Shown here one piece after another: positions 4,982 to 54,476 of a DNA stretch of 64,000 nt. Source of the stretch: Escherichia coli. GTDB taxonomy: Bacteria > Pseudomonadota > Gammaproteobacteria > Enterobacterales > Enterobacteriaceae. Made by a program: the position numbers and the translations under genes. Each line of letters begins with the position of its first letter. Positions within the stretch are counted from its first letter, which is position 1. The notes beneath the pieces were generated by a model. It ran no database searches, was not told the origin of the DNA, and saw nothing but the letters and a program-made list of their open reading frames with translations. The DNA lies in NCBI RefSeq assembly GCF_044647545.1, contig NZ_CP172818.1; one strand, written 5' to 3'.

Positions 4982-4991
4982 TTTTTTGTTA

Positions 4992-5822: not shown

Positions 5823-5841
5823 TTCTTTTTTCACCATCAAT

Positions 5842-5868: not shown

Positions 5869-6028
5869 CTTACTAAAAACGACACTTAACAAGTACCAGG
5901 TATAAAATATGCCTTATGGCCGAGCGGAAGTGTTTTCTGTATCCATAAATGCAAAAGTATTTTGTATGCGTGGTTTTAAATTTATTGATGGTGAATATTA
6001 ATGTTTTTTTCTAAGGACAACAAAAAGA

Positions 6029-33404: not shown

Positions 33405-34081
<677 letters not shown>

Positions 34082-34206
34082 TTATTTGCTCGCCAGGAAT
34101 TTTCGGAATAAATATGCTTTTGCATAATTCGATATATAAAGACGGTGTAGAGGAAAAGTAGCGAGAAAATCTGCATGGTTATGCATAACCATGCAGAAAT
34201 GTAAAT

Positions 34207-35094: not shown

Positions 35095-35446
35095 CCTTTC
35101 TCCCACAAATATCTAAACCTAAGTAAAGCGTGGAGTGTACTGGATATACCCAATGCTGGTTGAGCATTTGTTGAAAAAATTTTCCCCCGTTTTGACTAAA
35201 ATGCGCCAGGATTGATGGAATCATTAGTCTGGTGATTAGGAATAATCTGGATGAATGACAGGGAAAACATGCGTAATACTTACGCAGTTCTCTGAAAAAG
35301 TGATTTAAATTTAGATGGATAGCGGTGTATGGAAACGTTCTGTTACATGAAATGGCCCGTTAGACATCACAAATCGCGAAGAGTTTCCCATTAATTTTTG
35401 ATATATTTAAAACTTAGGACTTATTTGAATCACATTTGAGGTGGTT

Positions 35447-35962
35447 ATGAAAAAAATTGCATGTCTTTCAGCACTGGCCGCAGTTCTGGCTTTCACCGCA
35501 GGTACTTCCGTAGCTGCGACTTCTACTGTAACTGGCGGTTACGCACAGAGCGACGCTCAGGGCCAAATGAACAAAATGGGCGGTTTCAACCTGAAATACC
35601 GCTATGAAGAAGACAACAGCCCGCTGGGTGTGATCGGTTCTTTCACTTACACCGAGAAAAGCCGTACTGCAAGCTCTGGTGACTACAACAAAAACCAGTA
35701 CTACGGCATCACTGCTGGTCCGGCTTACCGCATTAACGACTGGGCAAGCATCTACGGTGTAGTGGGTGTGGGTTATGGTAAATTCCAGACCACTGAATAC
35801 CCGACCTACAAACACGACACCAGCGACTACGGTTTCTCCTACGGTGCTGGTCTGCAGTTCAACCCGATGGAAAACGTTGCTCTGGACTTCTCTTACGAGC
35901 AGAGCCGTATTCGTAGCGTTGACGTAGGCACCTGGATTGCCGGTGTTGGTTACCGCTTCTAA
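35447..35962 (+). CDS. ompX: Outer membrane protein X
   Basis: 171 aa with signal peptide and C-terminal Phe. Confidence 0.95.
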   Translation: MKKIACLSALAAVLAFTAGTSVAATSTVTGGYAQSDAQGQMNKMGGFNLKYRYEEDNSPLGVIGSFTYTEKSRTASSGDYNKNQYYGITAGPAYRINDWASIYGVVGVGYGKFQTTEYPTYKHDTSDYGFSYGAGLQFNPMENVALDFSYEQSRIRSVDVGTWIAGVGYRF

Positions 35963-35980
35963 TCACTTCGGTGATATAAA

Positions 35981-36012
35981 AAATCCGCCTCTCGGGGCGG
36001 ATTTTTGTTTTT
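35981..36012. terminator. Bidirectional rho-independent terminator between ompX and opgE
   Basis: aaatccgcc-tctcgg-ggcggattt hairpin flanked by A-run and T-run. Confidence 0.85.
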
Positions 36013-37594
36013 AAGGTTTCGGGTCGAAAATATCGGTTCCGAGATGGTTGTAATCTACCTTCTGTAACTGGAAGTTGGTGATGTATATCGGCCCGGCTTT
36101 CTTCTCAGATATAAACGGGTATTTGATGTTAATTTCCTTCGCTTTAATTCCCGTCCACTGGGAGAAAAAACCTAAGAAGTCATTGGCTGAGCGGCGGGCT
36201 TTAATCACCCGATGCGCTTTATCGTCGCTCGAAATGACCATAAAAGGCACCTGGAAATTCTGCTGATATTTATCATCATGGGCAAGGTATTGCACGTCTT
36301 TGCCGCGCTCTTTAAAGGCCAGACCGTGGTCAGAAAAGTAAACCAGCGAGAAGCTGCTGCCGCTGTTGCGTAACTGATCGTACAGCTTACGCAGTAAATC
36401 GTCCGTTTGCGTCATGGTATAGAGATAGCACGACGTTTCTTTCGATTGCACAAAGGTTTCGTATTTGCCTTGTGTCCGGTCGCAGGCCTGCGGATGTGAG
36501 CCCATCAGATGTAAAACAATCAGCTGCGGTTGCGAGTGCTCTTGCGCCAGCACTTGAGCGGTCATATCCAGTAACGCTTCGTCTTTCGTGTTTTTATCTG
36601 CTTCAAAATTACCTTCTTTCAGGAAGTACACTTCATCTGCACGTTTGGCGATGCTGGCGATAGCGGTATCGTATTCGCCGATTTGCCCCTGGTTGGAAAA
36701 CCACCAGGTCTGGAAGCCCGCGCGATTTGCCAGGGTGACAAAGTTATCCTGAAACTGTGGTTTGCCATCGACAACGCGATTGAGCGTTAAGCCAAGCGAT
36801 TTCTGCGTGGAGCCACTGGCGGCAATGTAGTCAGCAAATATCAAACCGTTAACGCTGCTGGCAAACGGGGTATTGTCCCAGTGACCGCCAAAGGCACCGA
36901 GGGCATCGCGACGCGCGCTTTCACCGATCACCACCACATAGGTCTGATACTTCGGCTTAACGGCAGTGACCGTCCAGGTATCTTTCATTCCGGAAAGTTT
37001 TGCCATCCGTTCTTGCTCTTCAATCACCTCGTTATTATTGACGATGACATCCTTAGCAAAACGAAATACCGGATAGCCAGTATCTTTCAGTTTAAATACG
37101 CCGCCCCAGGCCAGGTTTTGCACGGGAGCAACAAAAAATGTCGCCACACTGAATACCAGACACAGGCTGTCGAAGGTATTCCAGCGCGCTTTTTCATTCT
37201 CTTTTTTTCGCCTGATTGCTATTACGCCGAGCGCAAAAATAAATAAGCCGACCAGGTAGCTGTACCACGGAAAAATCGTCAGGATTTCGGTCGACTCTTC
37301 CATATTGGTGGAGTGCAATGCCAGCAATGTATTGAAATTAGGCGCGCCGTAGGCCTGAGCAAAAGGGAAATAACAAGCCGCCACCAGCGAACTGACACCG
37401 ACCAGAACTTTTTGTACGCGAGGCAATGTTCGCCATAGCAAAAGCAAAATAGCCGTAAACGCAGCGGTGTAGAGCAAACTGAAGGGATAACCTAAGCCGA
37501 GGTTAATTAATAGCGACTGTAAAAAGTAGAACGCAGTCCACGGGCTAAATACCCGGCTACGGGTAACAAGCGATTCTTTGAGGGTTAAATTCAT
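36011..37594 (-). CDS. opgE: Phosphoethanolamine transferase for osmoregulated periplasmic glucans
   Basis: 527 aa ORF (ybiP). Confidence 0.9.
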   Translation of the reverse strand: MNLTLKESLVTRSRVFSPWTAFYFLQSLLINLGLGYPFSLLYTAAFTAILLLLWRTLPRVQKVLVGVSSLVAACYFPFAQAYGAPNFNTLLALHSTNMEESTEILTIFPWYSYLVGLFIFALGVIAIRRKKENEKARWNTFDSLCLVFSVATFFVAPVQNLAWGGVFKLKDTGYPVFRFAKDVIVNNNEVIEEQERMAKLSGMKDTWTVTAVKPKYQTYVVVIGESARRDALGAFGGHWDNTPFASSVNGLIFADYIAASGSTQKSLGLTLNRVVDGKPQFQDNFVTLANRAGFQTWWFSNQGQIGEYDTAIASIAKRADEVYFLKEGNFEADKNTKDEALLDMTAQVLAQEHSQPQLIVLHLMGSHPQACDRTQGKYETFVQSKETSCYLYTMTQTDDLLRKLYDQLRNSGSSFSLVYFSDHGLAFKERGKDVQYLAHDDKYQQNFQVPFMVISSDDKAHRVIKARRSANDFLGFFSQWTGIKAKEINIKYPFISEKKAGPIYITNFQLQKVDYNHLGTDIFDPKP

Positions 37595-37865
37595 ATGCCA
37601 CTATCGTAACAAACGCCATGTGCTTACCCTGGCGTCAAGGGTCAATACCTGCAAGAGTGCGTGGAGAGGGGAAAGGGGTCCGCATCCGCGAGCCGCAATA
37701 TACGCAGGGCTGCAAGAAGATAGAGCGAGCCGCCGTTCAGGTCAACTACTGACGAACAAATCTTTTGCGAAGGGGATTGCAAATCCGACAAAAAGTGGGG
37801 TTTTTCAGACCAAAACGCGTTGTGCCTGCATAAAAGCAGGAGTGAAGCGGCGTACCGCGACGCCG

Positions 37866-37994
37866 CTATTTATCGGAAGGTTTATCTTGCTGCGGTTTGT
37901 TGTTGACCATATCGCACAACATAGAGAGCAGCATTAACCGTACTTTAAAGGGAGAATGACTAAACACGCGCATACACCTCTTGAACTCATTCAT
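37866..37994 (-). CDS. mntS: Small protein MntS, manganese homeostasis (within the RybA transcript)
   Basis: 42 aa: MNEFKRCMRVFSHSPFKVRLMLLSMLCDMVNNKPQQDKPSDK; absent from the ORF track (below its length cutoff). Confidence 0.85.
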   Translation of the reverse strand: MNEFKRCMRVFSHSPFKVRLMLLSMLCDMVNNKPQQDKPSDK

Positions 37995-38052
37995 AAGACC
38001 TCCTGACTTGCTAATCCCGTCGATCCTTGAGGGATGATTGCATTACATACAG

Positions 38053-38087
38053 ATATAGCACAGGCTATATTATATAGCTATTGCTAA
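38053..38087. promoter_or_regulatory. Putative MntR operator (two adjacent palindromes) between mntS and mntR
   Basis: ATATAGC-acag-GCTATAT followed by ATAGC-tatt-GCTA, 60-90 nt upstream of the mntS start. Confidence 0.6.
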
Positions 38088-38179
38088 AACGTTAATTTTT
38101 TGTACCTTCGCAACTCTGGTTTACAATGTGCGCACGAAATGAGAACGCTATGTATGCGTCACCATAATGAGGAAGCACA

Positions 38180-38647
38180 ATGAGTCGTCGCGCAGGTACG
38201 CCAACAGCAAAAAAAGTGACGCAGTTAGTGAACGTGGAAGAGCACGTTGAAGGGTTCCGCCAGGTCAGAGAGGCGCATCGGCGCGAGCTTATTGATGATT
38301 ACGTTGAGCTGATTTCTGACTTGATCAGGGAAGTGGGGGAAGCTCGTCAGGTAGACATGGCTGCTCGTTTGGGAGTTTCGCAACCGACGGTGGCTAAAAT
38401 GCTTAAGCGACTGGCAACCATGGGGCTGATTGAAATGATCCCCTGGCGTGGCGTGTTTTTAACGGCAGAAGGAGAGAAGCTGGCGCAGGAAAGCCGCGAG
38501 CGACATCAGATAGTCGAAAATTTCTTGTTGGTGTTGGGCGTCAGTCCGGAAATCGCCCGTCGCGACGCGGAAGGCATGGAGCACCATGTTAGTGAAGAGA
38601 CGCTCGACGCTTTTCGTTTGTTTACCCAGAAACACGGTGCCAAATGA
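38180..38647 (+). CDS. mntR: Mn(II)-responsive transcriptional regulator (DtxR family)
   Basis: 155 aa ORF. Confidence 0.95.
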
Positions 38648-39762
38648 GCCTGCCTTTTTTAAGCACGCTGCAAGGCGATCGTTTTTTTCAGTTATTAATT
38701 CTTGTTGGCATCGGATTAAGCTTTTTCGTTCCCTTTGCACCGAAATCCTGGCCTGCTGCTATCGACTGGCACACCATCATCACCTTAAGCGGCCTGATGC
38801 TGCTGACCAAAGGTGTCGAGTTAAGCGGTTATTTTGATGTGCTGGGGCGCAAAATGGTGCGCCGTTTTGCTACGGAGCGTCGGCTGGCGATGTTTATGGT
38901 ACTGGCGGCGGCGCTGCTTTCTACCTTTCTGACCAACGATGTCGCGCTGTTTATAGTTGTTCCGCTGACTATCACGCTAAAAAGACTGTGTGAGATCCCG
39001 GTTAATCGGCTGATTATTTTTGAGGCGCTGGCAGTCAACGCTGGTTCGCTACTGACGCCAATTGGCAACCCGCAAAATATTCTTATCTGGGGACGTTCTG
39101 GTCTTTCGTTTGCCGGATTTATTGCCCAAATGGCACCGCTGGCTGGCGCAATGATGCTGACACTCCTGCTGTTGTGCTGGTGTTGTTTCCCTGGAAAGGC
39201 GCTGCAATACCATACGGGGGCGCAAACGCCGGAGTGGAAACCGCGGCTGGTGTGGAGTTGTCTGGGGCTGTATATCGTTTTTCTGACGGCGCTGGAGTTC
39301 AAACAAGAGCTGTGGGGACTGGTGATTGTGGCGGCCGGCTTTGCGCTGCTGGCACGTTGCGTGGTGCTCAGTGTGGACTGGACGCTGCTGCTGGTGTTTA
39401 TGGCGATGTTTATCGACGTCCATTTACTGACCCAGCTTCCAGCGTTGCAAGGCGTGTTGGGTAACGTGAGTCATTTATCTGAACCCGGGTTATGGTTAAC
39501 GGCAATCGGTTTATCGCAGGTGATCAGTAATGTGCCGAGCACGATTTTGCTGCTCAATTATGTGCCACCGTCTTTATTATTGGCATGGGCGGTAAACGTA
39601 GGTGGCTTTGGTTTATTACCCGGATCGCTGGCAAATTTGATTGCGTTACGGATGGCGAACGATCGCCGTATCTGGTGGCGTTTTCATCTTTATTCGATAC
39701 CGATGCTGTTGTGGGCGGCGCTGGTGGGATACGTTTTATTCGTTATGCTCCCGGCCAACTAG
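38644..39762 (+). CDS. ybiR: Anion permease family inner membrane protein
   Basis: 372 aa; start overlaps the mntR stop. Confidence 0.9.
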
Positions 39763-39775
39763 GGTCTGGCCAAAT

Positions 39776-39808
39776 AAAAAAGGCGGATGATGAGTCCGCC
39801 TCTGTTTT
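39776..39808. terminator. Bidirectional terminator between ybiR and ldtB
   Basis: aggcgga-tgatgag-tccgcct hairpin flanked by A6 and TGTTTT. Confidence 0.8.
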
Positions 39809-39820
39809 ACGTTTTGACGA

Positions 39821-40741
39821 TTAATTCAGACGAACCGGCATCCCAGAACGATTTTTGATCGCTTCATCAAGAACAACCTGGTCAACATCTGGCTGACCGG
39901 TCACTGTCTGCACGCTCTTCGTCAGGGTAATTGGCACAATTTCCTGACCTTCAAACTGGGCTTCGGTGGTAGACAGCGGATTATGGACTTCAATATAACG
40001 GCTGCCGTCTGGCTCGGTGGTCGCTTTTACCGGCTCATCAATAAACTGCACGCGAGTACCGACAGGCACTTTCTCGAACAGGAATTTAATGTCTTCGTTA
40101 CGCAGACGCACACAGCCATGACTTACACGCAGGCCGATACCGAAGTTGGCGTTGGTGCCATGGATAGCGTACAGGCGACCGATGTAGAGTGCATACAGAC
40201 CCATCGGGTTATCCGGACCTGCCGGAACGACAGCCGGAAGCGGTTCGCCCGCAGCGCGGTACTCTGCGTGCATTTTGGCGGTCGGCGTCCAGGTCGGGCC
40301 TGCTTTCTTACGCTCAACTTTGGTGGTCCAGTTGATAGGCGTGTCTTTGCCTAACTGACCAATGCCGATGGGCAGCACGATAACGGTGTTGCTGCCTTTC
40401 GGATAGTAATAGAGACGCATCTCTGCGCTGTTAATGACAATGCCTTCATGAACGGTATCCGGCAGGATCAGCTGCTGCGGAATGTTCAGTACAGTACCGC
40501 CTTTCGGCAGGAAGGTATCCACACCCGGGTTAGCTTCCATCATGTTGGAAAGACCCATCTGGTACTCGGCGGCAAAATACTCCAGCGGCTGAGTGTTACC
40601 TTCAGGAATGGTGATTACCTGATTCTGACCAACCAGGCGACTCCCGTCGGTTGGCAGAGGATAAGTTACCGCAGAGGCGGTACTGCAAAAGCCGACAACA
40701 GCGAAGGCCGCTGCGAATAATGTTTTCAATTTCATATTCAT
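39821..40741 (-). CDS. ldtB: L,D-transpeptidase (links Lpp to peptidoglycan)
   Basis: 306 aa with signal peptide; catalytic Cys in ...RVSHGCVRL. Confidence 0.9.
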
Positions 40742-40959
40742 GTTAAGCGAGATTTTGTGCCTGGCAGGCCATTGGGTTGAGAATATTAGAGTATTGGAAG
40801 CGCATTATAAGTTCATTCCAGCTCACAGTGAAATCAGATGTGTACGAAATCACATTTTTTGCCTTTGGGAAGAGTGTAGACCTTAAGCGGGGGACGGGAT
40901 CTTCTTTCAGACTTATGGCATAATACGCGGTTTGTCATATCTCTTTTCAGGATACGCCT

Positions 40960-42552
40960 GTGTTAGTTTCCAGTAACGTCACCATGCAGTTCGGCAGTAA
41001 GCCGTTGTTTGAAAACATTTCCGTCAAGTTTGGCGGCGGCAACCGTTACGGCCTGATTGGCGCGAACGGTAGTGGTAAATCCACCTTTATGAAGATCCTC
41101 GGCGGCGACTTAGAGCCGACGCTGGGTAACGTTTCCCTCGATCCCAACGAGCGCATTGGTAAGCTGCGTCAGGATCAGTTTGCCTTTGAAGAGTTCACTG
41201 TGCTGGATACGGTGATCATGGGGCATAAAGAATTATGGGAAGTGAAGCAGGAGCGCGACCGCATCTATGCTTTGCCGGAAATGAGTGAGGAAGACGGCTA
41301 TAAAGTGGCCGATCTGGAAGTGAAATACGGCGAAATGGACGGTTACTCTGCGGAAGCTCGCGCCGGTGAACTGTTGCTTGGCGTGGGAATTCCAGTGGAA
41401 CAGCACTACGGCCCGATGAGTGAAGTTGCTCCTGGCTGGAAGCTGCGTGTGCTGCTGGCGCAGGCGCTGTTTGCTGATCCGGACATTCTCCTGCTCGACG
41501 AACCGACCAACAACCTCGACATCGACACCATTCGTTGGCTGGAACAGGTGCTGAACGAGCGTGACAGCACCATGATCATCATCTCGCACGACCGTCACTT
41601 CCTTAACATGGTTTGTACCCACATGGCGGATCTGGATTACGGCGAGCTGCGCGTTTATCCGGGCAACTACGATGAGTACATGACGGCGGCGACCCAGGCG
41701 CGTGAACGTCTGCTGGCTGATAACGCCAAGAAGAAGGCGCAGATTGCTGAGCTGCAATCTTTCGTTAGCCGCTTTAGCGCCAACGCCTCGAAATCTCGCC
41801 AGGCAACTTCGCGCGCGCGCCAGATTGATAAAATCAAACTGGAAGAGGTGAAAGCCTCCAGCCGTCAGAACCCGTTCATCCGTTTTGAACAGGATAAGAA
41901 ACTGTTCCGTAACGCGCTGGAAGTGGAAGGTCTGACCAAAGGGTTTGATAACGGTCCGCTGTTTAAAAATCTCAACCTGCTGCTGGAAGTCGGTGAAAAA
42001 CTGGCGGTACTGGGTACCAACGGCGTCGGTAAATCAACGCTGTTGAAAACGCTGGTGGGCGATCTGCAACCGGACAGCGGCACCGTAAAATGGTCTGAAA
42101 ACGCGCGCATTGGTTACTATGCTCAGGACCACGAATATGAGTTTGAAAATGATCTGACCGTGTTCGAATGGATGAGCCAGTGGAAGCAGGAAGGCGATGA
42201 CGAGCAGGCGGTACGCAGCATTCTCGGTCGTTTGCTGTTCAGCCAGGACGACATTAAAAAGCCAGCTAAAGTGCTTTCCGGTGGGGAAAAAGGGCGGATG
42301 CTGTTTGGTAAGTTAATGATGCAGAAGCCGAACATTCTGATCATGGACGAACCGACCAACCACCTGGATATGGAATCTATTGAGTCGCTGAACATGGCGC
42401 TGGAACTGTATCAGGGCACGCTGATCTTTGTTTCACACGACCGTGAGTTCGTAAGCTCCCTGGCGACCCGTATTCTGGAAATCACCCCGGAACGCGTGAT
42501 CGACTTTAGCGGTAATTACGAAGATTATCTGCGTAGTAAAGGGATCGAGTAA
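40960..42552 (+). CDS. ybiT: ABC-F family ATPase with two nucleotide-binding domains, no membrane domain
   Basis: 530 aa; Walker [10 protein letters not shown] and GTNGVGKST. Confidence 0.9.
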
Positions 42553-42637
42553 CTGTTGATCTCGTTTCCCAGATCCAGCAGCTGCTGAGGTTGTCATAAA
42601 ACAGGCCGAAGCTAAACGTCATTGCGGCGGGTGATGG

Positions 42638-43205
42638 CTAATGGAATGTGTTGTACAGCGGGTCAGTACTCACGGCGTTGTAGCCCATCGCGTCGAGGTT
42701 ACGCATCTCGTAACGTTTACCGTTGCGTTGCAGGTCGCCGGCTTTATCTCCGAGGCCATAAAAGCGTTCATCTTTACGACGGCTCTGATAGTGCGCCACA
42801 CCGTCACCGTGGGCATTCAGCAGATAAGCGCTGGTCGGTCGGTCATTCACTAACGGCAGCCATTTCGTCTTCGTTGTTACTATAGTGCCACTCCAGCCAC
42901 AGCGGCTGGTGAACGGTGGACCAGTGACTCGGTGGCGATAACCACGGCGTTGTTGTGCTGGTTCAGGTTCATGCGGGCAGGCCAGCCGCTGGACATTTTG
43001 CCGGCCGCGCCCTTCCCGATGGCACATCCTGCTGGAGCAATGCTCCAGGTGCGATCCAGCGCCAGCTCGCCTTTGCGTTTTAACAGCACGCGGAACAGAA
43101 TTCCAGCACGTACAGACGCAATACGCCCGCCATCGACCAGCAGTTCAACGTGGTGGGCAGACTGTTTGAGGTCCAGTTTTTCAGCGTTTCGACGTTGCAC
43201 ATCAC
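42638..43205 (-). pseudogene. Glycoside hydrolase family 31-like N-terminal fragment, frameshifted and 3'-truncated
   Basis: Two consecutive frames: ...HHVELLVDGGRIASVRAGILFRV...NQHNNAVVIATESL then ...RFYGLGDKAGDLQRNGKRYEMRNLDAMGYNAVSTDPLY-stop; same motif spacing as YicI ([23 protein letters not shown]); about 190 aa retained of an expected 700+. Confidence 0.55.
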
Positions 43206-43207
43206 TC

Positions 43208-44445
43208 TCAGGCGCGTTTTGCGCGACGTTCAGCAATAAAGGTGACCAGGAAGAAAGCGCCAATCAGGTCAAAGAAGCCCATGGCGATAAACAGGGCTTA
43301 AAGCCGATTTTGTCAGCAGTAACCCCGATAATCAGGGAGAAACAGGAAACTTGCTATCGACGCGGCAGAACCGCGCATGCCGTTACAGTGGCCATCTGAC
43401 CTTTGTCGAGGATTCCACTACTAATGCGCTAAGCATGCAGGAGATGATCTGGTCAACCGAAGCCGCCTATGGAAGATAAGGACGATGGCGATATGGGTTA
43501 TCCAGAAAGGCCATCACCGCCAGCGAAACCATCAGGAATGCGCCACTGACCGATCTATGCGCAATGGAGTTCACACTGACTCAGCCCAAACAGGCGGGTG
43601 TAAAGTTTGGTCAGATAGCCGCTGGCAATACTGCCAAGATCAGCGGCGAAGGAACGGCAACCAGGCGAAAGAGTGCGATCTGCTTCAGGTCGATGCCATA
43701 GGCATCTGGACAGGTATAGCGGAACCCAGAAACTCATCACCGCCCACGCCGGTTCTGCCATAAAGGCTGGGATAGTGATACCGTAAAAGCGTTTATTTTT
43801 GCCCACGGTTTTCAGTGCGGTCAGAAAGGGTAACTTGACCGGGGAGCTTCGTTATCCTGGCGGAGCAACCAGCTTGGCTTCGCTGAAGGTCAGGATGCTT
43901 ATCCGGGTTGCGATAAAACCCACCACAGCACCACCCACAGCATCGCCAGGATGCCAGTGGCATAAATGCGCCCTGCCAGCGAATGAAGCGTGGGCAAAAT
44001 AGATAATCGGTGGGGCCAGCATGGCACCGATGGAGTCTACGTCTGCCCAGCGGCGATCGGGCGTTGCGATTTTGGAAACCATTCACCTCATAGTTTTGGG
44101 GTTTGCCGGGGTGGCCGCGGCTTCCGCACCGCCCGATAAAGAAGCGCAACAGCGCCAGATGTACCCAGTTTCCCGCCCCCGCATGCATCAGACAGGCCAG
44201 CGCCCACAGCCCCTGTGCAGATCAGAAGCCCAGTTTGAGGCCAATGACGTCAATGAGCCACCGCATAACGGTTGAAATAGGGTATAGGCGAGTTGGAAAG
44301 CACCTACAATCCAGGAATATTGTTTTGTGCAATCCCCAGGCTGCTTTTCAACTCGGCGTACACCCAGCGAATTACGTGTGATGTAGTTGACAGTAACACC
44401 GAGCAAAAAAAGGACCAGCATCCACCAACGCAGATTTTTGAACAC
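43208..44445 (-). pseudogene. ExuT-like (anion:cation symporter family MFS) sugar-acid transporter, multiply frameshifted
   Basis: Fragments in at least four frames align in order along ExuT: N-terminus MFKNLRWWMLVLFLLGVTVNYITRN...KQYSWIVGAFQLAYTLFQP, then WRCCGWCCGGFYRNPDKHPDL, then KNKRFYGITIPAFMAEPAWAVMSFWVPLYL, then C-terminus IGVTADKIGFKP...FIAMGFFDLIGAFFLVTFIAERRAKRA. Confidence 0.7.
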
Positions 44446-44779
44446 CGGCGTGGTTTACTGGCAGTCATATCAATCGATACCCACTGATATGCACTCCACA
44501 GAATGGTATAGGGGGGCGGCAACGTCAGACGGAGTTGTCACACCACTTTTAACCTTTTGATAAATAAAGTCTTTATTGTCTGTTTTTCCATTGTTCTTGT
44601 ACTGGAAGTTGTTGTCACATTTTTACAGTAAGAGACACTAAAAGCGAAAAAGAAAGCGGGTTTTGTGCACGTTTTTCCATGCGGCCCATACATTACTGAA
44701 ATGGATTTAATGCCAGACAGAATGGGCTTTTTTTGCTCATGAAAATTCTGTCATTTCCGAATTAGAGGACATCAGAAAT

Positions 44780-45830
44780 CGGCAAAGAGCTTAAATTGCC
44801 GATATCGCCGCACGTACCGGATTATCGCCGATACGGTTTCGCGGGTGCTGCTGGCAAAGCGAATACCAGTGCACGCGCTCGCGAACAGGCGCTGGCCTGC
44901 GCGTGAGTTGGGCGCGATGGATGGCATGGCAGCAGGTCATGTTGCTGAATACAACTCATCATTTTGCGCCGCAACGCGCGTTTGACCAACGATCTGATAT
45001 CTTTTATTACCTGGTGTGATCCAGCATCAGCAAAGCGTTATCGCCCGCATGAAGTGCGGCTGCGTTACTGCGTGTTAAGGTAGTTCTACAGCTGATCCCT
45101 GGCGTGATCTGGCGGCATGAATGAAGCAGATACGCAGGCGGCGATCCTGCTGGGGATCGACGATCCGCACATCCATGATCTGGCCGCCGATCGCTAAGCC
45201 TTGCGCTGATCGACTGCTGGTGATGAACGAATGCGCCTCCCGACGATTGCGCCGGACCATCGGTTAATCGGCGTGTCTGCCGCCCGCTATCTGTTTGAAA
45301 TGGGTCACCGGGAGGTGATGAACGTTATGTGCCTGCGCTCGGCCACACTATGGAGCAGCGGTTTGCAGGGATCAAAGAATCATGGCGTCAGCATAATCTG
45401 GCCTTTCACCATGACCGTCATTTGCTGAATATCAGCAGTTTTCTCAGCGCTAAAGAAGCGGAAGAAGGTCGGAGCGCGGCCTGATGCCGCCAATGGCAAT
45501 ACGTTGCCGACGGCGTTTCTGGTCGGCGGGGATTTTTATGGCGGCGGGAACGGTAAATGCGCTACATCGTCGTGGTCTGCGCGTACCACAGGATGTCTCG
45601 GTGATGAGTATCGATGGTCTTCAATCTTGCGGCAATCGAGGATGTTCCCGACGGCTGTGACGTGCCACGCGATCAGCTAAGGGTTAAGTGGTGCAAATGT
45701 TGCAACAGCGGCTGATTCGCCGGATGTCTGCGGTGGGCTCGCTGCTGCTGCACGGACGATTAGCGGTGCGGACGCGCGGCGGTTGCCCAGGAAAAGGGAA
45801 CACCGCCGTGGAACGGGAAGGGCTGTACGA
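44780..45830 (+). pseudogene. LacI-family transcriptional regulator, multiply frameshifted
   Basis: N-terminal helix-turn-helix spread over three frames (IADIAARTGLSP / TVSRVL / GKANTSARAREQALACA); sugar-binding-domain fragments PDHRLIGVSAARYLFEMGHREV and ALHRRGLRVPQDVSVMSIDG; boundaries approximate. Confidence 0.65.
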
Positions 45831-45833
45831 CAA

Positions 45834-47102
45834 TCATTCCATTCCCAGCGCTCGCTTACCGTGAATGTTGAGGTCGGCAAGCGTAAAGCGTCCTTCCCAG
45901 TTTGTTTCATAGTCCTCGCGCGGGAAGTCGCCCGGCGATGCGCCTTTTTCCAGTGCGGCCTTCACCTTGTGCGCGTAGGCAAGATTTTTCTCGCACATCG
46001 GTGCCGCAGGAATGTACATCACGTTGCCCCAACCCTGTTGATTTTCAACGGGGGCAACGGAATGGATGACGTCGCAGTGCCACCAGACGGAGTCTCCGGC
46101 TTCGAGTTGTGGAATGCTGGTTAATGCCTCAATCAACAGTGGATGCCATTGCTCTGATACCGGCAACACTCTTCCGGGCGCTACGCCGCACAGTTCATCC
46201 TCCGGCACATCATCAAGCAGCGGACGTAACAGCACGTACGCCATGGCTTCAGGAATGGGCACGACGTGCAGCAGTCCCTGACCAGGCAGCATATCAGAGA
46301 GCGCTGTCCAGCCCTGGAATGTCCGAAACACGGAACATTTGGTGGTGTTGTCCACCGTGTACTCTTCAACTTCTGTACGATGTGCCGCATGCCAGGGATC
46401 ATATTGCGCCAGATTGCCATTAAAGACGTTGGCGAAAACGCGCTGATACGCTGGAAGCAGCCAGCGTTCCAGTGCCCCGGAGTCGGTATGCGCTCCGAGA
46501 CCTTTGGAGGCCGTTCCGGGCGGACGGCGGCGGATACGGTCAGGGTAGATGACGCTCACATCCGGGTTAAACCATTGCTTTCCATCACTTTCAAATGTCC
46601 ACAGACGATTGAGAAACGACTGCGCATTCGCCATTTCTTCACTCTGGCGGGCCTGCATTTGCGCCTGCGACCAGTAGATGGGGTAAATCTCGGGACGTGA
46701 AGCGCTGAGCGTCCCGAAGAAATTATCGCCGGGGCCTTTGTAGACCTCATCAAAGCGGTTGCGGTCCAGATAGTCCAGCATCGACTGATCCCAGCCTAGC
46801 GCTTGTTCGCGGGGGAAATGGCCTTTTATCACCGCACAACCGCGACGTTTAATCTGTTCGCGTTGCTCTGCAGTAACATGACCTGCTTTGATATCGGCAT
46901 AAGACAGCACCGGCCAGACTGCATCGCCCTGTGCTTTGAGTGCGTTGATTTCAGCCACTCGCGTGGCAATGTCATCGCTTAGCTGATTAAAGATCTGCTG
47001 GACGTCGCCAAGCTGCGCCCGCAGCGCGTGCTTCATCTGACGGATAGCTGCTTTGTGATCGGCAGGCAATGTGTTGCTGGTAAAAGTAGAAGCCATAACC
47101 AC
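45834..47102 (-). CDS. ybiU: DUF1479 family protein
   Basis: 422 aa intact ORF. Confidence 0.85.
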   Translation of the reverse strand: MVMASTFTSNTLPADHKAAIRQMKHALRAQLGDVQQIFNQLSDDIATRVAEINALKAQGDAVWPVLSYADIKAGHVTAEQREQIKRRGCAVIKGHFPREQALGWDQSMLDYLDRNRFDEVYKGPGDNFFGTLSASRPEIYPIYWSQAQMQARQSEEMANAQSFLNRLWTFESDGKQWFNPDVSVIYPDRIRRRPPGTASKGLGAHTDSGALERWLLPAYQRVFANVFNGNLAQYDPWHAAHRTEVEEYTVDNTTKCSVFRTFQGWTALSDMLPGQGLLHVVPIPEAMAYVLLRPLLDDVPEDELCGVAPGRVLPVSEQWHPLLIEALTSIPQLEAGDSVWWHCDVIHSVAPVENQQGWGNVMYIPAAPMCEKNLAYAHKVKAALEKGASPGDFPREDYETNWEGRFTLADLNIHGKRALGME

Positions 47103-47247
47103 CTCGCATTAACTTTCATTCGAAACTATGCTGATTTGCATGTGACAATATAAGTTATAAATAAGTTAATGCAAGTTTAATGATTTGATGTGATGTACAG
47201 GATGTAAAAAGAAGGGAAAACCGGAGCGCATGGCTCCGGTAGAGAGG

Positions 47248-48063
47248 TCAGCTGTTAAAAGGGGATCTGTTATCCAGCACAGCCTGAATCACGTTCAGCG
47301 CGCCTTCATGATTATTATCATCGGTAGCATAACGGGCGATTTGTTTAATGTTTTCCGCAGCATTGCCCATCGCAAAGGAATAACGCGCCATTTTCAGCAT
47401 CTCCGCATCGTTACCGCTGTCGCCAATCGCTACCACATTTTGCGGTGACAGATCCCAGCGTTTCAGTAACCGCGAAATACCGTTTGCTTTATGTAGACCG
47501 GGAATAATCAGGTCGATAAAGCCAAAACCACTGGTGACGGGTTTCATAATGCCATCCAGCGCTATGTGCAGTTTGTCGATCACTAACGGGATTTGTTCAT
47601 CCGGCAGGTTGAGCGAAAACTTGAACAGTACGTCGTCAATCTCCTGATAATCTTTTACAGGTTTCAGGCGATGGTAGTGTTTTGCCATCAGTGCGACGAA
47701 TGCTTCGGGGGCATTTTCGCTGACATATGCACTTTGCAGACCGCAAGCGACAAAATTGAGTTGCTTATCTTTTAGCAACTCGCCAATAACAATCCGCGAT
47801 TCATGTCGGGTCAGTTCGCCGTGGAACAACTGCTTGCCATGTTCGTAAACCAGTGCGCCGTTTTCCGCGACAAAAGAGATCTCATCCTTTAGCTCAGGAA
47901 AGAACGAAATAAGCTGGTAATACTGATTACCGCTGGCGACAACGAACTCAATGCCGCGCTTTTTCAGTTCCTGATATTGCGCCATAAAACGTGGTTGGTT
48001 GTACGTTTTGGCGTCGTTAAGAAAAGTACCGTCCATGTCTGTGACGATAACTTTTACGCTCAT
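47248..48063 (-). CDS. ybiV: HAD-superfamily (Cof-type) sugar phosphatase
   Basis: 271 aa; N-terminal DMDGT motif. Confidence 0.9.
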
Positions 48064-48208
48064 AGGTGTGCTCCTGGCTCGAAAATGAAACCGTAACAGT
48101 GTAATAACAATGTGACGCAGAGCACAAATTATATTTCGAATGAAAGCGAGGCTGAAATTGATGATGTGAATGATTTAGCCCGGCGACGACGACGCCGGGC
48201 TGAGGAGA

Positions 48209-50641
48209 TTACAGCATATGTTCAGTACGGGCGATGATATCGTCCTGAGCGTCTGGAGAGAGCGCGGTGAAGAAGGCGGAATAGCCCGCGACACGCACTA
48301 CCAGATCGCGGTACTGATCCGGATGTTTTTTCGCTTCCAGCAGCGTTTCGCGGGAAACGATGTTGTACTGAATATGCCAGCCTTTATGCACTTCAAAGAA
48401 GGTGCGTAGCAGGATCATCAGTTTCTGCTTGTCAGATTCGTTCTCCAGCGTTGCCGGATTCAGTTTCTGGTTGAGCAACACGCCGCCGAGAATCGCGGCC
48501 GTAGGCAGTTTACCCACCGAGCCAATGACCGCAGTAGGGCCAAGATGATCAGTACCGGAGGCCGGACTAGCTCCTTCTGCCAGCGGGGTATGCGCTTTAC
48601 GTCCGTCCGGCGTTGCCATCGTCTGCGCGCCAAAGGGTACGTTAGCGGAGATAGATGACGTACCCGCGTAATAATTGCCGCCAACCGGACCACGACCATA
48701 GCGCGGGTTATGGTACTGTTTTAGTTCGTCGATATAGGTCTGATAAGCGCGAGCCAGCAGCGTATCGACAGTATCATCGTCGTTGCCGTACTTAGGCGCA
48801 CCGTTAATCAGCCGCTGACGCAGCTGCTCGTGAGTCAGGCCGTCGAAGTCATCCGCCAGTGCGGCAGCCAGCTGTTGCTGACCAATCGCGCCCTGTTCAA
48901 ATACCAGTTTCTTCACTGCCGCCAGGCTGTTGCCGAGGTTAGCAATGCCGACCTGCAGGCCAGAAACCCAGTCATATTTCGCGCCGCCTTGCTTGATACT
49001 TTTCGCTCGCTCAATACAGTCATCCACCAGCGCCGAGCAGAGAATATCGTGTACGTTCTCTTCCAGCATGGTGTCGACGACATATTCGATTTCGATTGAT
49101 TTACGCGTGTAGTAACGGATTTGCGTATCCCATGCGTCCATTACTTCATCGAAGTTGTTGAAGTTACCCGCTGACAACGCTTTTTCTTGTGGCAGGAACA
49201 CTTTGCCGCTGGTGGCATCACGACCGCCTTCCAGCGCCGCCAGCATCACGCGGGCGAAGTTGATAAAGCTCATGCCGGTACAGCGATAGCCCCATTTGCC
49301 ACCGACGGCGGTTTCGATACAACCAATCGCTGCGTAGTCGTAAGCGTCCTGCGGTTCAATACCGAGTTTAATAAATTCCGGGATGACGATTTCATCGTTG
49401 TTGAACGCCGGCATCCCGAAACCACAGCGGATCACCTGAACACAGGCATCGAGGAAATCGTTACTCATACCCGCATGGTAACGCACGCTGAGGTTAGGCT
49501 GAGTCGAACGCAGGCGACCGCAGGATTCGAGGATCGCATAAGAGAGTGGATTTACCGCGTCCATCGGTTGACCATCAACCAGATTTTGCCCGCCAATGGT
49601 GACGTTCTGATACAGCGGACTTCCCGCAGAGGCTTTTGAGTGTGAGCCGGAGCGGATTTTGTTCACTTCCAGCAATTTCAACCAGCAGCTATGCAGCATC
49701 TCGATGGCGTGTTCGCGATCCAGTGTCTGGTTCAGTTCAACGTCACGGCGATAGTATGGATAGAGATACTGGTCCATACGACCAAAAGATACTGAGTGAC
49801 CGTTAGATTCGATCTGCAATATCAACTGGATGAAGTAACACAGTTGCAGCGCCTGCCAGAAAGTCTGCGGCGGTTGGTGGGCGATAAGATCGCAGTTTTC
49901 TGCCATCGCCAGCAGTTCATCGCGACGGCTTTCGCGGGTTTCGGTCGTGGCCATTTCACGCGCCAGGGCAGCGAAACGTTCAATGTGTTCACTGACTGCC
50001 ACCAGCACGATATCAATCGCTTTCAGGAATTGCTCGCCGTGCAGATCTTCCAGTACCGTCAGATTGATGCGCGAGCGACGTTCCGCCACTTTCTCACGCA
50101 GACCATCAAGCCCTTTTTCCAGCAGTAGCGGGAAATTCACCGCCAGGTGCGCATCGCCGGAGGTCATATTGCCCTCCGCTTTAATGATGCCGGTCGCCAG
50201 CAGACCTTTTTGCTCATCGGTAAACATGCCGTAGCAGCGATCCTGTACCGTCTGACCGCGCCACCACGGGCACACTTCATGCAGAACACGTTTGTTCTCC
50301 TCGCTCACCGCAAAACCAGCACCCGGACGATCTGCCAGATCATCAATCTCTTTTTCGATCCACGAGACGGTATATTCCGGGAAGATCGGCGCGGCGCGAA
50401 CCTCGCTTGCCTGGTTGCCGATGATCAACTCATCGTGCTTGATCCAGATGGTGCGATTCGCCAGGTGATGCGCCAGTGCCAGCGCGCGACGTACCGGGAT
50501 CGGCTTATCGAGATGTTGTTGATACATCTCGGTATAGTGCTGCGCGCGCTCGGTACAGACTGGTGGTTTCACAATATGCACCAGCGCATTTTTGTGCGCT
50601 TTAATGCGGTCGCTGAGCGTGTCCAGTTTCAGTGTGGTCAT
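48209..50641 (-). CDS. ybiW: Glycyl radical enzyme (pyruvate formate-lyase-like), substrate not established
   Basis: 810 aa; C-terminal glycyl-radical signature ...VVRVAGYSAFF. Confidence 0.9.
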   Translation of the reverse strand: MTTLKLDTLSDRIKAHKNALVHIVKPPVCTERAQHYTEMYQQHLDKPIPVRRALALAHHLANRTIWIKHDELIIGNQASEVRAAPIFPEYTVSWIEKEIDDLADRPGAGFAVSEENKRVLHEVCPWWRGQTVQDRCYGMFTDEQKGLLATGIIKAEGNMTSGDAHLAVNFPLLLEKGLDGLREKVAERRSRINLTVLEDLHGEQFLKAIDIVLVAVSEHIERFAALAREMATTETRESRRDELLAMAENCDLIAHQPPQTFWQALQLCYFIQLILQIESNGHSVSFGRMDQYLYPYYRRDVELNQTLDREHAIEMLHSCWLKLLEVNKIRSGSHSKASAGSPLYQNVTIGGQNLVDGQPMDAVNPLSYAILESCGRLRSTQPNLSVRYHAGMSNDFLDACVQVIRCGFGMPAFNNDEIVIPEFIKLGIEPQDAYDYAAIGCIETAVGGKWGYRCTGMSFINFARVMLAALEGGRDATSGKVFLPQEKALSAGNFNNFDEVMDAWDTQIRYYTRKSIEIEYVVDTMLEENVHDILCSALVDDCIERAKSIKQGGAKYDWVSGLQVGIANLGNSLAAVKKLVFEQGAIGQQQLAAALADDFDGLTHEQLRQRLINGAPKYGNDDDTVDTLLARAYQTYIDELKQYHNPRYGRGPVGGNYYAGTSSISANVPFGAQTMATPDGRKAHTPLAEGASPASGTDHLGPTAVIGSVGKLPTAAILGGVLLNQKLNPATLENESDKQKLMILLRTFFEVHKGWHIQYNIVSRETLLEAKKHPDQYRDLVVRVAGYSAFFTALSPDAQDDIIARTEHML

Positions 50642-50646
50642 GGTTG

Positions 50647-51573
50647 TTATCCTCGTAAGGTCGCGGTTAACCCTTTCTGGCAGGCGTACTGCTGGGCAAA
50701 GTCGAGCAGTTCTGGCGCATCAAGCGGTTTTTCCGGGGCGTCATAGGGCAGATTAAGTAAGTGATATTTGTTGATGCCCAGCGTGTGGTAGGGCAGAAAA
50801 TGAATTTCGCCAACGTGCAGCTCGTCGGCGGCAAAATCGGTAATGGCTTTTACAGAGGTTTCGTCGGCATTAAAGCCCTGAATCAGCGGTACGCGGATAA
50901 TGATTTTTTTGCCCGCTGAGGCGAGTTTTTTCAGGTTATCCAGCACTCTGGCGGCGTTACCGTCGGTCCACTGTTTAAACGGCGCGTCGGCAACGTGTTT
51001 TAAATCGGCAAGAAACAGATCGATATAGGGCAGAGAAGGGGCGATATATTTCCACGGCACATGCAGACAGGTTTCTACCGCAGTATGAATGCCAGCCTCG
51101 TGGCTGGCTTGCAGTAGCGCCATCGCCATTTCCGGCTGCATAAACGGTTCACCGCCAGAAAGCGTTAAGCCGCCGCCGCTGCGATCGTAAAACGGTTTAT
51201 CGCGCAGAACGGTCGCCATGATCTCCTCAACGCTTTTCACTTCACCACACACGGTTAACGCCTGTGTCGGGCAGCAGTCGGTTAGCGCCGTCAGATGCTC
51301 CGGGGTTAACTTTTCCCGATGAATAAGCAAACCATTCAACGCGCGCTCAATCACGTCCGGCGCGGCCTTAGCGCACAGCTCACAGCCTTCCAGGCACAGA
51401 CGTGGGTCATACAGCAGATCCTGCGTGCGGGCGCGGCTTTCCGGGTTCTGACACCAGCGGCAGCCCAGCGAACAGCCTTTAAGAAATACGACCGTGCGGA
51501 TACCGGGGCCATCATGGGTCGAGTAGCGCTGAATATTGAAAATCATAGTTGCCTCTCTGTTTCGTTCAAACAT
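50647..51573 (-). CDS. ybiY: Glycyl-radical-enzyme activating enzyme (radical SAM)
   Basis: ORF 50647..51573; radical-SAM CxxxCxxC motif (CSLGCRWC) plus additional Cys clusters; true start may be a downstream Met. Confidence 0.85.
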
Positions 51574-51676
51574 TAAAATACTTTCGAATGAAAGTTAGAT
51601 TGATGTGCGTCAACTGTTCAGAGAGTTTTCCCGTGATAGTCTACATTCAGACAAAAAGTACATTTTGAGGATGGTT

Positions 51677-52339
51677 ATGGAACTGTATCTGGATACTTCA
51701 GACGTTGTTGCGGTGAAGGCGCTGTCACGTATTTTTCCGCTGGCGGGTGTGACCACTAACCCAAGCATTATCGCCGCGGGTAAAAAACCGCTGGAGGTTG
51801 TGCTTCCGCAACTTCACGAGGCGATGGGCGGTCAGGGGCGTCTGTTTGCCCAGGTAATGGCTACCACTGCCGAAGGGATGGTGAATGACGCGCTTAAGCT
51901 GCGTTCTATTATTGCGGATATCGTGGTGAAAGTTCCGGTGACCGCCGAGGGGCTGGCAGCGATTAAGATGTTAAAAGCGGAAGGGATTCCGACGCTGGGA
52001 ACCGCGGTATATGGCGCAGCACAAGGGCTACTGTCGGCGCTGGCAGGTGCGGAATATGTTGCGCCTTACGTTAATCGTATTGATGCTCAGGGCGGTAGCG
52101 GTATTCAGACTGTGACCGACTTACACCAGTTATTGAAAATGCATGCGCCGCAGGCGAAAGTGTTAGCCGCGAGTTTCAAAACCCCGCGTCAGGCGCTGGA
52201 CTGCTTACTGGCAGGATGTGAATCAATTACTCTGCCACTGGATGTGGCACAACAGATGATTAGCTATCCGGCGGTTGATGCCGCTGTGGCGAAGTTTGAG
52301 CAGGACTGGCAGGGAGCGTTTGGCAGAACGTCGATTTAA
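51677..52339 (+). CDS. fsaA: Fructose-6-phosphate aldolase 1
   Basis: 220 aa from internal Met ([11 protein letters not shown]...). Confidence 0.9.
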
Positions 52340-52491
52340 CCGGACGTTCTGCATCCTCATCAATTGCTGATAACGTTGTGGAGTGCACCAAGCTTCCGCG
52401 CCTGAAATTCGCCCGAACTAGGCAGATAAGGTTACGCCGATTGGGTCTGAGAAAATTATCTGCCGCGACTTATCAGGCCTGGGGCTGGCAG

Positions 52492-53241
52492 TTACTGCCC
52501 GCACACCTCACACCCCGGATTACGCATCAGTTTCATTTCGCGAAACTGACAGGTCATCGCATCGTACATCACGATTTTTCCGCTGGCCGGTTTGCCATAA
52601 CCTGCCAGCAGTTTGATCGCTTCCATTGCCTGCAACGAACCAATTACGCCGATTAACGGTGCCATCACGCCTGCTTCTACGCAGGTTAACGCGTTCTCGC
52701 CAAACAAACGGCTAAGGCAGCGATAGCACGGTTCGCCGTCCTGATAAGTGAAGACCGTGATTTGCCCTTCCATACGAATTGCCGCGCCGGAAACCAGCGG
52801 CACCTTCGCGGCAAAACAGCCTGCGTTCAGTTGATTACGTACTGCAACGTTATCCGTACAGTCGAGCACCAGATCGTGTTTTGCAATCATCGCAGCAAGT
52901 TCAGCGTCATCAAGCAGTGCATTGACTGGCGTAATCGCGATATGTGGGTTGATCCGCGTCAGGGCGTCACGGGCGGATTTCACCTTCGGTTGCCCGACCG
53001 TGGCATCGCTGTGCAGCGTCTGGCGTTGCAGATTCGAGAGCGAAACCGTGTCGAAGTCGAGCAGCGTCAGGTTGCCGACACCGGCGCTTGCCAGATACTG
53101 CGAAGCTGCGCAGCCGAGTCCACCGAGGCCGACGATCAGCACACGAGAATCTTTTAGCGCCTCCTGACCGTCAAAATCAAAACCGCGCAGAATGATTTGC
53201 CGGTTGTAGCGCAGCATCTCCTGATCGCTGAGTTCCGCCAT
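52492..53241 (-). CDS. moeB: Molybdopterin-synthase adenylyltransferase
   Basis: 249 aa with GxGxxG dinucleotide fold and C-terminal CxxC pairs. Confidence 0.95.
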   Translation of the reverse strand: MAELSDQEMLRYNRQIILRGFDFDGQEALKDSRVLIVGLGGLGCAASQYLASAGVGNLTLLDFDTVSLSNLQRQTLHSDATVGQPKVKSARDALTRINPHIAITPVNALLDDAELAAMIAKHDLVLDCTDNVAVRNQLNAGCFAAKVPLVSGAAIRMEGQITVFTYQDGEPCYRCLSRLFGENALTCVEAGVMAPLIGVIGSLQAMEAIKLLAGYGKPASGKIVMYDAMTCQFREMKLMRNPGCEVCGQ

Positions 53242-54476
53242 TACAGGCCTCCGAACAACGCGTTAAACGGTTCTACTTCCACCCATTCGCCCACTTCCAC
53301 ATTGCCGCGATCGCGTTCCAGCACGATAAAGCAGTTGCCGAGGCTAAAGGAGCTAAATATATGTGAACCCTGATGTCCGGTGGTCGTCACTTCCAGTTCG
53401 CCATCGGCGTTGCGTTGCAGCACGCCGCGCTGGAAATCAAGGCGTCCTGGCGATTTCTTCAGAGGCGATGCCGTGCGCACACGCTGGCGCGCGGGCAGGC
53501 CGCTGGCGGTATTGCCGCTTAGTTTTGCCAGCAAAGGCTGTACCAGTTGATAGAAGGTCAGCGTTGCTGAAACCGGGTTGCCCGGCAGGCCGCAGAACCA
53601 GCTATTGCTGAGTTTACCGAACGCGAACGGTTTACCTGGTTTAATCGCCAGCTTCCAGAAGGCGATCTCCCCCAGCTCTTCAAGAATGGTTTTGGTGTAA
53701 TCCGCTTCACCCACTGAAACACCGCCGGAACTGATCACCACATCCGCCTGGCTGTCGGCTTCAATAAATGCGGCGCGCAGGGCATGGGGATCGTCGCGGA
53801 TAATCCCTAAGTTGATTACCTCGCATCCCAACTGTTCTAACATCAGGTGTACGGCGAGACGGTTGGTATCGTAGATTTGGCCGTCGCCCAGCGGCTGGCC
53901 TGGCAACTGGAGTTCATCACCGGTAGAAAACAGCGCTACACGCACTTTACGAATCACCGGAACTTCGGCAATCCCCAGTGAAGCAATTACTGGCAGCTCT
54001 GCGGTAGTCAGGCGAGTCCCCGCCGGGAAAACAACCGCACCTGCAGAGATATCTTCACCGCGACGGCGAATATTTTGCCCGCTACGCACTTCAGCAGTAA
54101 AACGCACGCCATTGTCCGTTTGTTCAGTCTGCTCCTGCATCACCACCGCTTCGCAGCCTTCCGGCACCGGCGCACCGGTCATAATACGAATGCAGGTACC
54201 CGCAGGCCATTCACCATGGTACGGCTGACCGGCAAAGGATTTACCGGCAACGGGCAGCGGTTGCCCGGAGGCAATATCGGCTAAACGCACCGCGTAGCCG
54301 TCCATAGCGGAGTTATCAAACCCCGGGACATCCAGTGGCGAAACGACATCGCTCGCCAGAATACGACCAAAACACTGAACCAGTGGCAGCGTTTCCTGGG
54401 CGGTCAGTGGGGTAACGCGAGAAAGCATCTCATTAAGCGCGGTGTCGAGCGACATCAATCCGGTGGTAAATTCCAT
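53241..54476 (-). CDS. moeA: Molybdopterin molybdenumtransferase
   Basis: 411 aa ORF; stop/start overlap with moeB. Confidence 0.95.

Follow-up and report, generated by a model that had tools for sequence, protein, structure and literature searches.

A damaged ST648 sugar-utilisation island between ybiT and ybiU of an Escherichia coli assembly most likely reflects sequence noise rather than gene decay

Is the region between ybiT and ybiU in this Escherichia coli assembly the remains of a catabolic operon that has decayed, or is its broken appearance a matter of how the sequence was made? In the window, i.e. the whole 64,000-nucleotide stretch of DNA that was analysed, positions 42553-45833 (3,281 bp) form the largest stretch without an ORF, whether the limit is set at 160 residues or more or at 200 or more. 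The next-largest ORF-free gap in the window measures 1,205-1,769 bp, and the longest ORF within the stretch is 155 aa. An earlier interpretation based on the letters alone, below called the sequence-only reading, had described the same region as ~3.3 kb with no intact ORF, and this holds.

An intact counterpart exists in other strains, as that reading had hoped a search would find. Of 5426 complete E. coli genomes, 577 (~10.6%) have a complete three-gene island between ybiT and ybiU, while K-12 lacks it and has only a 240-bp, REP-containing spacer between the two genes; the locus is thus accessory, as proposed. Intact examples in E. coli ST648 are found in MS6198 (MS6198_RS04415-RS04430) and WWCOL-236 (ACLZ0G_RS08635-RS08645). 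The stretch aligns to the intact island over its full length with 92.2% identity, which places its protein-like look far from chance. The copy in the window agrees with the ST648 island in where it lies and in the order and orientation of its genes, but it lacks 1,887 bp and none of its genes is intact. The top score over positions 34000-54000 of the window is shared by at least 38 complete genomes, all of them annotated with an intact island.

When the three intact proteins of WWCOL-236 were used as tblastn queries against the stretch, all three were found colinear and correctly oriented, with the frame switching repeatedly. The proposed layout, a minus-strand ExuT-like transporter and GH31 glycosidase with a divergent plus-strand LacI-type regulator, was therefore correct, and the three families align in the expected order when frameshifts are tolerated. 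They are also broken in the way that had been described: relative to the intact allele there are 14 frameshifting indels in the GH31 gene, 31 in the MFS gene and 38 in the LacI gene, and every reading frame of the three remnants contains 3-17 stops. In the alignment to the intact allele the annotated start codons of all three genes are altered, for which the chance is ~0.01. An Rfam search of the stretch gave no matches, i.e. no hidden RNA genes, and a search for IS elements and repeats in it gave nothing meaningful.

The left flank is ybiT (40960-42552, plus strand), encoding an ABC-F ATPase, which is intact and 100% identical to WWCOL-236 up to position 42548. Here, between 42548 and 42549, lies the junction of a deletion with the sequence ATCGAGTAACTGTTGATCTCG. 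This deletion has taken 1,887 bp out of the ST648 island (4109-5995 of allele L001), made up of the last 7 bp of ybiT, a 179-bp spacer and, from the 3' part of the GH31 gene, 1,701 bp. No microhomology is evident at this deletion, and its junction falls exactly where the homology between ST648 and K-12 breaks. The junction changes the final codons of ybiT: the C-terminus of YbiT in the window reads GIE*, the same as in K-12, while it is GIDG* in ST648.

The GH31 remnant (42549-43193, minus strand) covers the N-terminal ~221 codons (residues 1 to ~220 by tblastn), and its start codon is destroyed. Codons 222-787 are deleted, so 566 of 787 residues are missing, in agreement with the claim that most of the glycosidase is gone. 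The catalytic TIM barrel (PF01055, residues 262-586 of the intact enzyme), with the nucleophile and the acid/base aspartates, is absent from the window. What the remnant retains, across three frames, is the N-terminal galactose-mutarotase-like domain (PF13802, residues 26-212 of the intact enzyme). The remnant of the ExuT-like MFS transporter, of the anion:cation symporter family (43208-44488, minus strand), is full length (residues 1-433 by tblastn); however, it has CAT>GAT (plus strand) at the annotated start, 11-17 stops in every frame and no uninterrupted ORF for the 12-helix protein. The MFS and LacI genes are separated by what was their divergent promoter/operator spacer (44489-44777), which is hit as densely as the genes, at ~8 events per 100 bp.

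The LacI-family remnant (44778-45864, plus strand, by tblastn) carries ATG>ATC at its annotated start and is left without an intact reading frame. As in intact strains, it overlaps the 3' end of ybiU by its final 31 bp. The right flank, ybiU (45834-47096, minus strand, DUF1479), is intact and 100% identical to ST648 upstream of its altered end; only its last 2-3 codons are changed, giving ALGME* in the window and ALGIDS* in ST648.

The properties of the intact proteins tell what the island may do. The intact transporter resembles ExuT/DgoT-type transporters along its full length: it has 43% identity to K-12 ExuT across an alignment of 414 residues (E 7e-120), and its best NCBIfam match is TIGR00893 (3e-78), below the NCBIfam cut-off. 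It is a paralogue of ExuT at another locus, with GH31 instead of uxaCA as partner, and it is unreadable in the window. The intact enzyme contains PF13802, PF01055 and PF21365 and scores under all NCBIfam equivalog cut-offs. Its assignment to GH31 was right, although it is nearer to ER glucosidase II alpha (PDB 5f0e) and a Flavobacterium GH31 (6jr6), both at E ~1e-79, than to the only distantly related E. coli YicI (7e-36) and YihQ (1e-31). The intact regulator contains PF00356, PF00532 and PF13377, with an N-terminal HTH (PF00356) and a sugar-binding domain of the periplasmic-binding-protein type, and is also matched by the RbsR, CytR and PurR models. Judging from family membership only, the island would be a LacI-repressed operon in which the symporter imports an acidic alpha-glycoside that the GH31 enzyme cleaves. 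A literature search on the ybiT-ybiU island found nothing relevant.

Next, we consider the amount of damage. Against the intact island the stretch shows ~130-185 substitutions and ~100 indel events in addition to the 1,887-bp deletion; the per-base rates are 3.9% for mismatches, 2.9% for deletions and 1.2% for insertions. The ~60 kb of the window beyond the stretch depart from ST648 strain MS6198 in one SNP, five small deletions and an eroded REP, and the flanks have no synonymous changes. At the flank rate 0.3 events would be expected in 3.3 kb, while ~280 are seen. The damaged tract, from 42549 to ~45841, begins and ends at the points where ST648 loses and then regains homology to K-12.

The sequence-only reading took the region to be a gene-decay fossil, i.e. 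an island that lost its function in this lineage and then decayed neutrally in place. Several features agree with such an origin: all three genes are broken, the lack of codon-position bias is what would be expected in the absence of selection, the reading frames of ybiT and ybiU are kept despite their changed ends, and deletions outnumber insertions, which is the known direction in bacterial pseudogenes. However, ~5% neutral substitutions would need roughly the time of species diversification, which is at odds with the nearly unchanged flanks. In a three-way comparison of the window, MS6198 and allele L002, there are 181 substitutions, 87 deleted bases and 31 inserted bases private to the window, against two changes private to MS6198. 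A relative-rate test of 181 versus 2 gives P = 2e-17 even when neutral evolution is allowed to be 3.6-fold faster.

The spectrum of changes is also difficult to reconcile with evolution. Natural pseudogenes diverge in proportion to their flanks, have few indels per substitution, are common to relatives, and show a strand-symmetric, transition-rich spectrum. In the stretch there are ~0.4-0.75 indel events per substitution under every aligner setting, ts/tv is 1.25 compared with 2.6 between natural alleles, and a GC>AT bias is absent. Counted on the plus strand, there are 75 C<->T changes against 25 of the G<->A type (binomial P = 6e-7). With transversions at ~10 per type, C<->T is ~3.7 times and G<->A ~1.2 times the mean transversion. 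The excess at third codon positions, strong in the natural differences between L001 and L002, is absent from the substitutions private to the window; purifying selection before decay is ruled out by this lack of a codon-position signal. Decay in host-restricted enterobacteria such as Shigella, as generally known, has frameshifts, truncation and loss of accessory catabolism in common with the stretch, but the stretch fails to show the flank-proportional divergence, the low indel ratio and the sharing among relatives.

Further, none of the public collections searched contains the version in the window. None of the 5,426 complete E. coli genomes has a match above 95% to the stretch, and none has a match above 85% to the REP variant of the window. 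In a public gene collection the ST648 allele of YbiU is found in 6,001 blocks, while the allele of the window, with either possible start, is found in none. Scans of the GTDB representative genomes for the deletion junction pattern, and of the JGI metagenomes for a 33-mer from inside the stretch, were negative. We therefore abandon the fossil interpretation and regard a genuine pseudogene as very unlikely: the flanks are nearly identical to ST648 strains with an intact island, while the stretch is ~8% damaged with a non-evolutionary spectrum. Indel-rich, strand-asymmetric damage between ST648-identical flanks instead fits errors of sequence or assembly; the sequence-only reading had itself named assembly errors as a ground for refuting it.

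Could the damage be old but the sequence foreign? A long-decayed allele from an unsampled, divergent Escherichia might have been imported into an ST648 background by recombination. Damage limited to the island between conserved flanks is what an allele swap predicts, and the ends of ybiT and ybiU are unlike those of ST648. However, of ~60 informative sites the copy in the window has the ST648 state at 55-56 and that of a second E. coli allele at only 4, which rules out a divergent natural allele; the ancestor of the stretch is the ST648 allele. An imported copy would accordingly fall within the ST648-type allele on a branch ~90 times too long. Both flanks are free of donor SNPs all the way to the junction, and the scars at four other breakpoints, described below, as well as the strand asymmetry would be left unexplained. 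We give import an even smaller chance than in-place decay.

The least probable of the explanations, in our view, is that the damage is real, i.e. that the island was focally hypermutated in vivo by an unknown mutagenic process or by engineered, targeted mutagenesis. Such strand-biased, indel-rich hypermutation, confined to segments without homologues in other E. coli, would have affected the accessory island, the REP insert and junctions of hypervariable spacers; it would have spared the core, perhaps through restoration by homologous recombination. It would account for damage that is sharply local and for transitions that are strand-asymmetric. However, C<->T confusion that is symmetric, combined with ~100 random small indels within 3.3 kb, is not produced by any known natural process. 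The C<->T over G<->A bias keeps its sign in minus-strand and plus-strand genes alike, i.e. it is independent of the direction of transcription, and mutagenesis linked to transcription or gene orientation is rejected on these grounds. In addition, the window has scars at unrelated hypervariable spacers.

These scars concern all five structural breakpoints between ST648 and K-12 in the window, at ~943, ~22799 and ~30736, at the island and at the REP (52396-52461), and each of them is private to the window. A hypervariable or structural breakpoint is the sole predictor of scars that survives. K-12 as the literal backbone of a reference-guided consensus was considered and rejected, since the first three breakpoints are surrounded by pure ST648 sequence. 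A homopolymer frameshift in dps suggests indel-type errors elsewhere in the window. Two observations count against an artefact: the REP erosion consists almost entirely of G/C deletions, unlike the profile of the island, and elsewhere the window has high quality.

Taken together, we favour, with a probability of roughly 80%, that the stretch is a corrupted copy of the ST648 GH31/ExuT-like MFS/LacI island whose damage is technical and not biological. We infer that the cause is either a real artefact of assembly or polishing or a deliberate in-silico degradation. Most likely the ~8% substitutions and small indels were introduced during the building of the sequence, and the 1.9-kb truncation was probably introduced at the same stage. 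A likely route would be that an uncorrected long-read segment of single-read quality, or its simulated counterpart, stayed in place. Such noise might survive where polishing or reference-guided consensus fails, as in segments that K-12 and other E. coli without the island do not have. The actual organism probably carries an intact island.

How well does the stretch resemble known read errors? In nanopore reads the total error is 6-8% with more deletions than insertions, one transition class is 3-5 times the transversions while the other is only slightly above them, and recent basecallers have a mismatch share of 1.2-2.2% (Delahaye & Nicolas 2021, PMC8486125). The stretch is similar to raw single-read nanopore data in its ~8% error, its deletions exceeding insertions and its fixed-strand transition asymmetry. 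However, its mismatch share (3.9-5.5%) is above the published one, which counts against a nanopore-type origin, and its homopolymer enrichment is weaker. The indels have a near-random sequence context: of 14 homopolymer runs of at least 5 nt, 7 are altered, about the rate of random hits, and 58% of the 1-bp deletions fall in runs of at least 2 compared with a background of 45%. A deletion of 1.9 kb beginning precisely at the island edge is an atypical read error and also counts against an artefact. The hit on each of the three start codons could indicate deliberate in-silico inactivation rather than an artefact of the assembler. A deficit of indels of length 3n was considered as a signature of design; it is present in the MAFFT alignment and not robust to aligner settings, and the idea was dropped.

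The underlying biology is modest, an uncharacterised GH31 enzyme at ybiT-ybiU that goes with a LacI repressor and an ExuT-like symporter for acidic sugars. Damage that proved genuine after all would mean a focal mutagenesis of a very unusual kind. The case is foremost one for caution: what appears to be a textbook decayed operon is most likely an artefact, synthetic or of sequence quality, once it is compared with near-identical genomes, and calls of pseudogenes or "genome reduction" that rest on single assemblies can arise from such noise.

The segment at 42553-45833 (3,281 bp), between ybiT and ybiU, is the longest part of the window to lack ORFs when a minimum length of 160-200 aa is set: the runner-up gap measures 1.2-1.8 kb, while the longest ORF inside the segment is 155 aa. 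The lack of an intact ORF, first remarked on from sequence alone, is thus confirmed. Its base composition is unremarkable, and neither Rfam families nor any meaningful repeat was found in it. When the intact GH31, MFS and LacI proteins are compared with the window by tblastn, the matches are colinear and in the orientation of the intact genes, with many frame switches; the sequence-only reading was therefore right about both the identity of the genes (GH31, ExuT-like transporter, LacI regulator) and their operon-like layout.

By megablast the stretch is found in 577 of 5,426 complete E. coli genomes (10.6%), at 90-92% identity throughout. All matches are chromosomal, and in essentially all genomes single-copy. 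In these genomes the space between ybiT and ybiU is occupied by an island of three intact genes: a GH31 glycosidase (787 aa) and an MFS transporter (433 aa) on the minus strand, and a divergent LacI-family regulator (367-386 aa). Whether K-12 carries the stretch had been left undecided; it does not, as its ybiT-ybiU junction consists only of a 240-bp REP-containing spacer. In its intact form the GH31 protein shows the complete set of domains (PF13802, PF01055, PF21365, DUF5110) and scores under every cut-off of the NCBIfam equivalog models; its nearest relatives are glucosidase II alpha and a Flavobacterium GH31 enzyme (E about 1e-79), YicI and YihQ being far more distant. Full-length comparison of the MFS protein with K-12 ExuT gives 43% identity. 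The LacI-family gene and ybiU of intact strains are convergent, their 3' ends overlapping by 34 bp (L001, the WWCOL-236 locus with the ST648-type allele, 9337-9370; window 45834-45864). In strain IH5 the GH31 N-terminus/MFS C-terminus junction occurs a second time as a partial copy (hit H30, NZ_CP168949.1 5054186-5055163) adjoining an annotated phage capsid-cement gene, which suggests that part of the island was mobilised or duplicated there.

Compared with the ST648-type allele, the window copy lacks 1,887 bp, comprising the last 7 bp of ybiT, a 179-bp spacer and 1,701 bp of GH31, so that 221 codons of the latter are left and its catalytic barrel is gone. The retained 3.3 kb contains about 130-185 substitutions, 45-65 deletion events and 26-35 insertion events, the ranges reflecting the choice of aligner. 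The three remnants carry 14, 31 and 38 frameshifting indels, and the annotated start codon is altered in each. On both sides the island edge falls within the final codons of the flanking gene (42541-42552 and 45834-45845). YbiT ends in GIDG* in island-bearing strains and in GIE* in both K-12 and the window; YbiU ends in ALGIDS*, ALGMDV* and ALGME*, respectively.

Outside the stretch the window is sequence of the ST648 clone. Over roughly 60 kb a single SNP, an eroded REP and five small deletions separate it from strain MS6198; across this same region two ST648 genomes are seven SNPs and one single-base indel apart. For 34000-54000 at least 38 complete genomes tie at the maximal score, and the island is annotated as intact in all of them. 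At the flank rate 0.3 events would be expected in the stretch; about 280 are observed. With such flanks, the gene-decay fossil proposed earlier is not supported, and natural decay of the island in place is very unlikely. When a second natural allele serves as the outgroup, 181 private substitutions and 118 indel bases fall on the window branch and 2 changes on that of MS6198, an excess with P = 2e-17 even when a pseudogene is granted 3.6 times faster evolution. Import of an old, decayed allele is a slightly poorer candidate still: the window agrees with ST648 at 55-56 of about 60 informative sites, which argues against an imported divergent allele.

The window's version of the stretch occurs in none of the 5,426 genomes, and searches for the deletion-junction pattern in GTDB representative genomes and for a 33-mer from inside the stretch in JGI metagenomes were negative. 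The ST648 YbiU allele is present in 6,001 blocks of a public gene collection, beside an intact island in every instance among the matches listed, against no blocks for the window allele (…ALGME). The reference strain WWCOL-236 carries a 1-bp frameshift of its own in pdeI (window ~61859), where the window and MS6198 are intact.

The spectrum of changes is also unlike that between natural alleles: the third-codon excess seen there is absent from the window-private substitutions, and ts/tv is 1.25 versus 2.6. There are 0.4-0.75 indel events per substitution, in near-random sequence context. On the plus strand, C>T (36) and T>C (39) exceed G>A (12) and A>G (13; P = 6e-7), with about 10 transversions per type, and this asymmetry has one sign throughout, in the two genes on the minus strand, in the spacer and in the LacI gene on the plus strand. 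Changes that stand alone are mostly C<->T preceding G. Each change X>Y is about as frequent as its reverse Y>X, a symmetry that a measurement confusion would also show. True focal hypermutation, the third biological account, is the least probable of all. Nanopore reads in read orientation show one transition class at 3-5 times the transversions and the other just slightly above them, a global error of 6-8%, and more deletions than insertions (PMC8486125). The stretch, with 2.9% deletions, 3.9% mismatches and 1.2% insertions, matches this profile closely but imperfectly, as mismatches make up a large share and errors favour homopolymers only weakly.

The damage has sharp limits: the window equals ST648 up to 42548 and again from about 45841, the points where ST648 loses and then regains homology to K-12. 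All five ST648/K-12 structural breakpoints in the window bear a window-private scar: deletions of 2 bp at 943, 1 bp at 22799 and 3 bp at 30736, the island tract (42549 to about 45841), and the fsa-moeB spacer (52396-52461), where a 99-bp REP insert has lost about 25 bases. The three small deletions lie a few bases from REP-containing insertions of 150, 73 and 139 bp in K-12 relative to ST648. The 99-bp insert is a REP doublet present in ST648 and absent in K-12; its losses are scattered single-base deletions, nearly all G/C, with one substitution, and this variant is in no complete E. coli genome (best match 85%). Elsewhere, a 1-bp deletion at 33828 shortens a T6 run (so in ST648 and K-12) to T5 and breaks dps (33405-34048) into two ORFs; this is probably an error in sequencing the homopolymer rather than true Dps loss. 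The terminator T-run after ybhL (5862) is T7, as in K-12, against T8 in ST648, and a private A for G near the ybhM start (6043) is, apart from those in the damaged tracts, the sole substitution in about 60 kb.

We therefore consider the apparent fossil to be a non-biological corruption of the ST648 island, an assembly artefact or synthetic noise (probability roughly 0.8) that may include the 1.9-kb truncation, and all three biological accounts to be much less likely. A polishing or consensus procedure blind to non-reference segments would leave damage in them, which fits damage limited to segments unalignable to other E. coli beside a perfect strain-specific core; the picture would be the same if accessory segments had been degraded in silico on purpose. 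K-12 as consensus backbone is ruled out, as the breakpoint surroundings are pure ST648.

If the damage were real, the stretch would be a pseudogenised accessory operon, ordinary in all but its inexplicable rate; should the damage be artefactual, the stretch is not a feature. The intact island is a small unexplored part of E. coli accessory metabolism, in which a GH31 enzyme is paired with an ExuT-like acidic-sugar symporter under predicted LacI repressor control.
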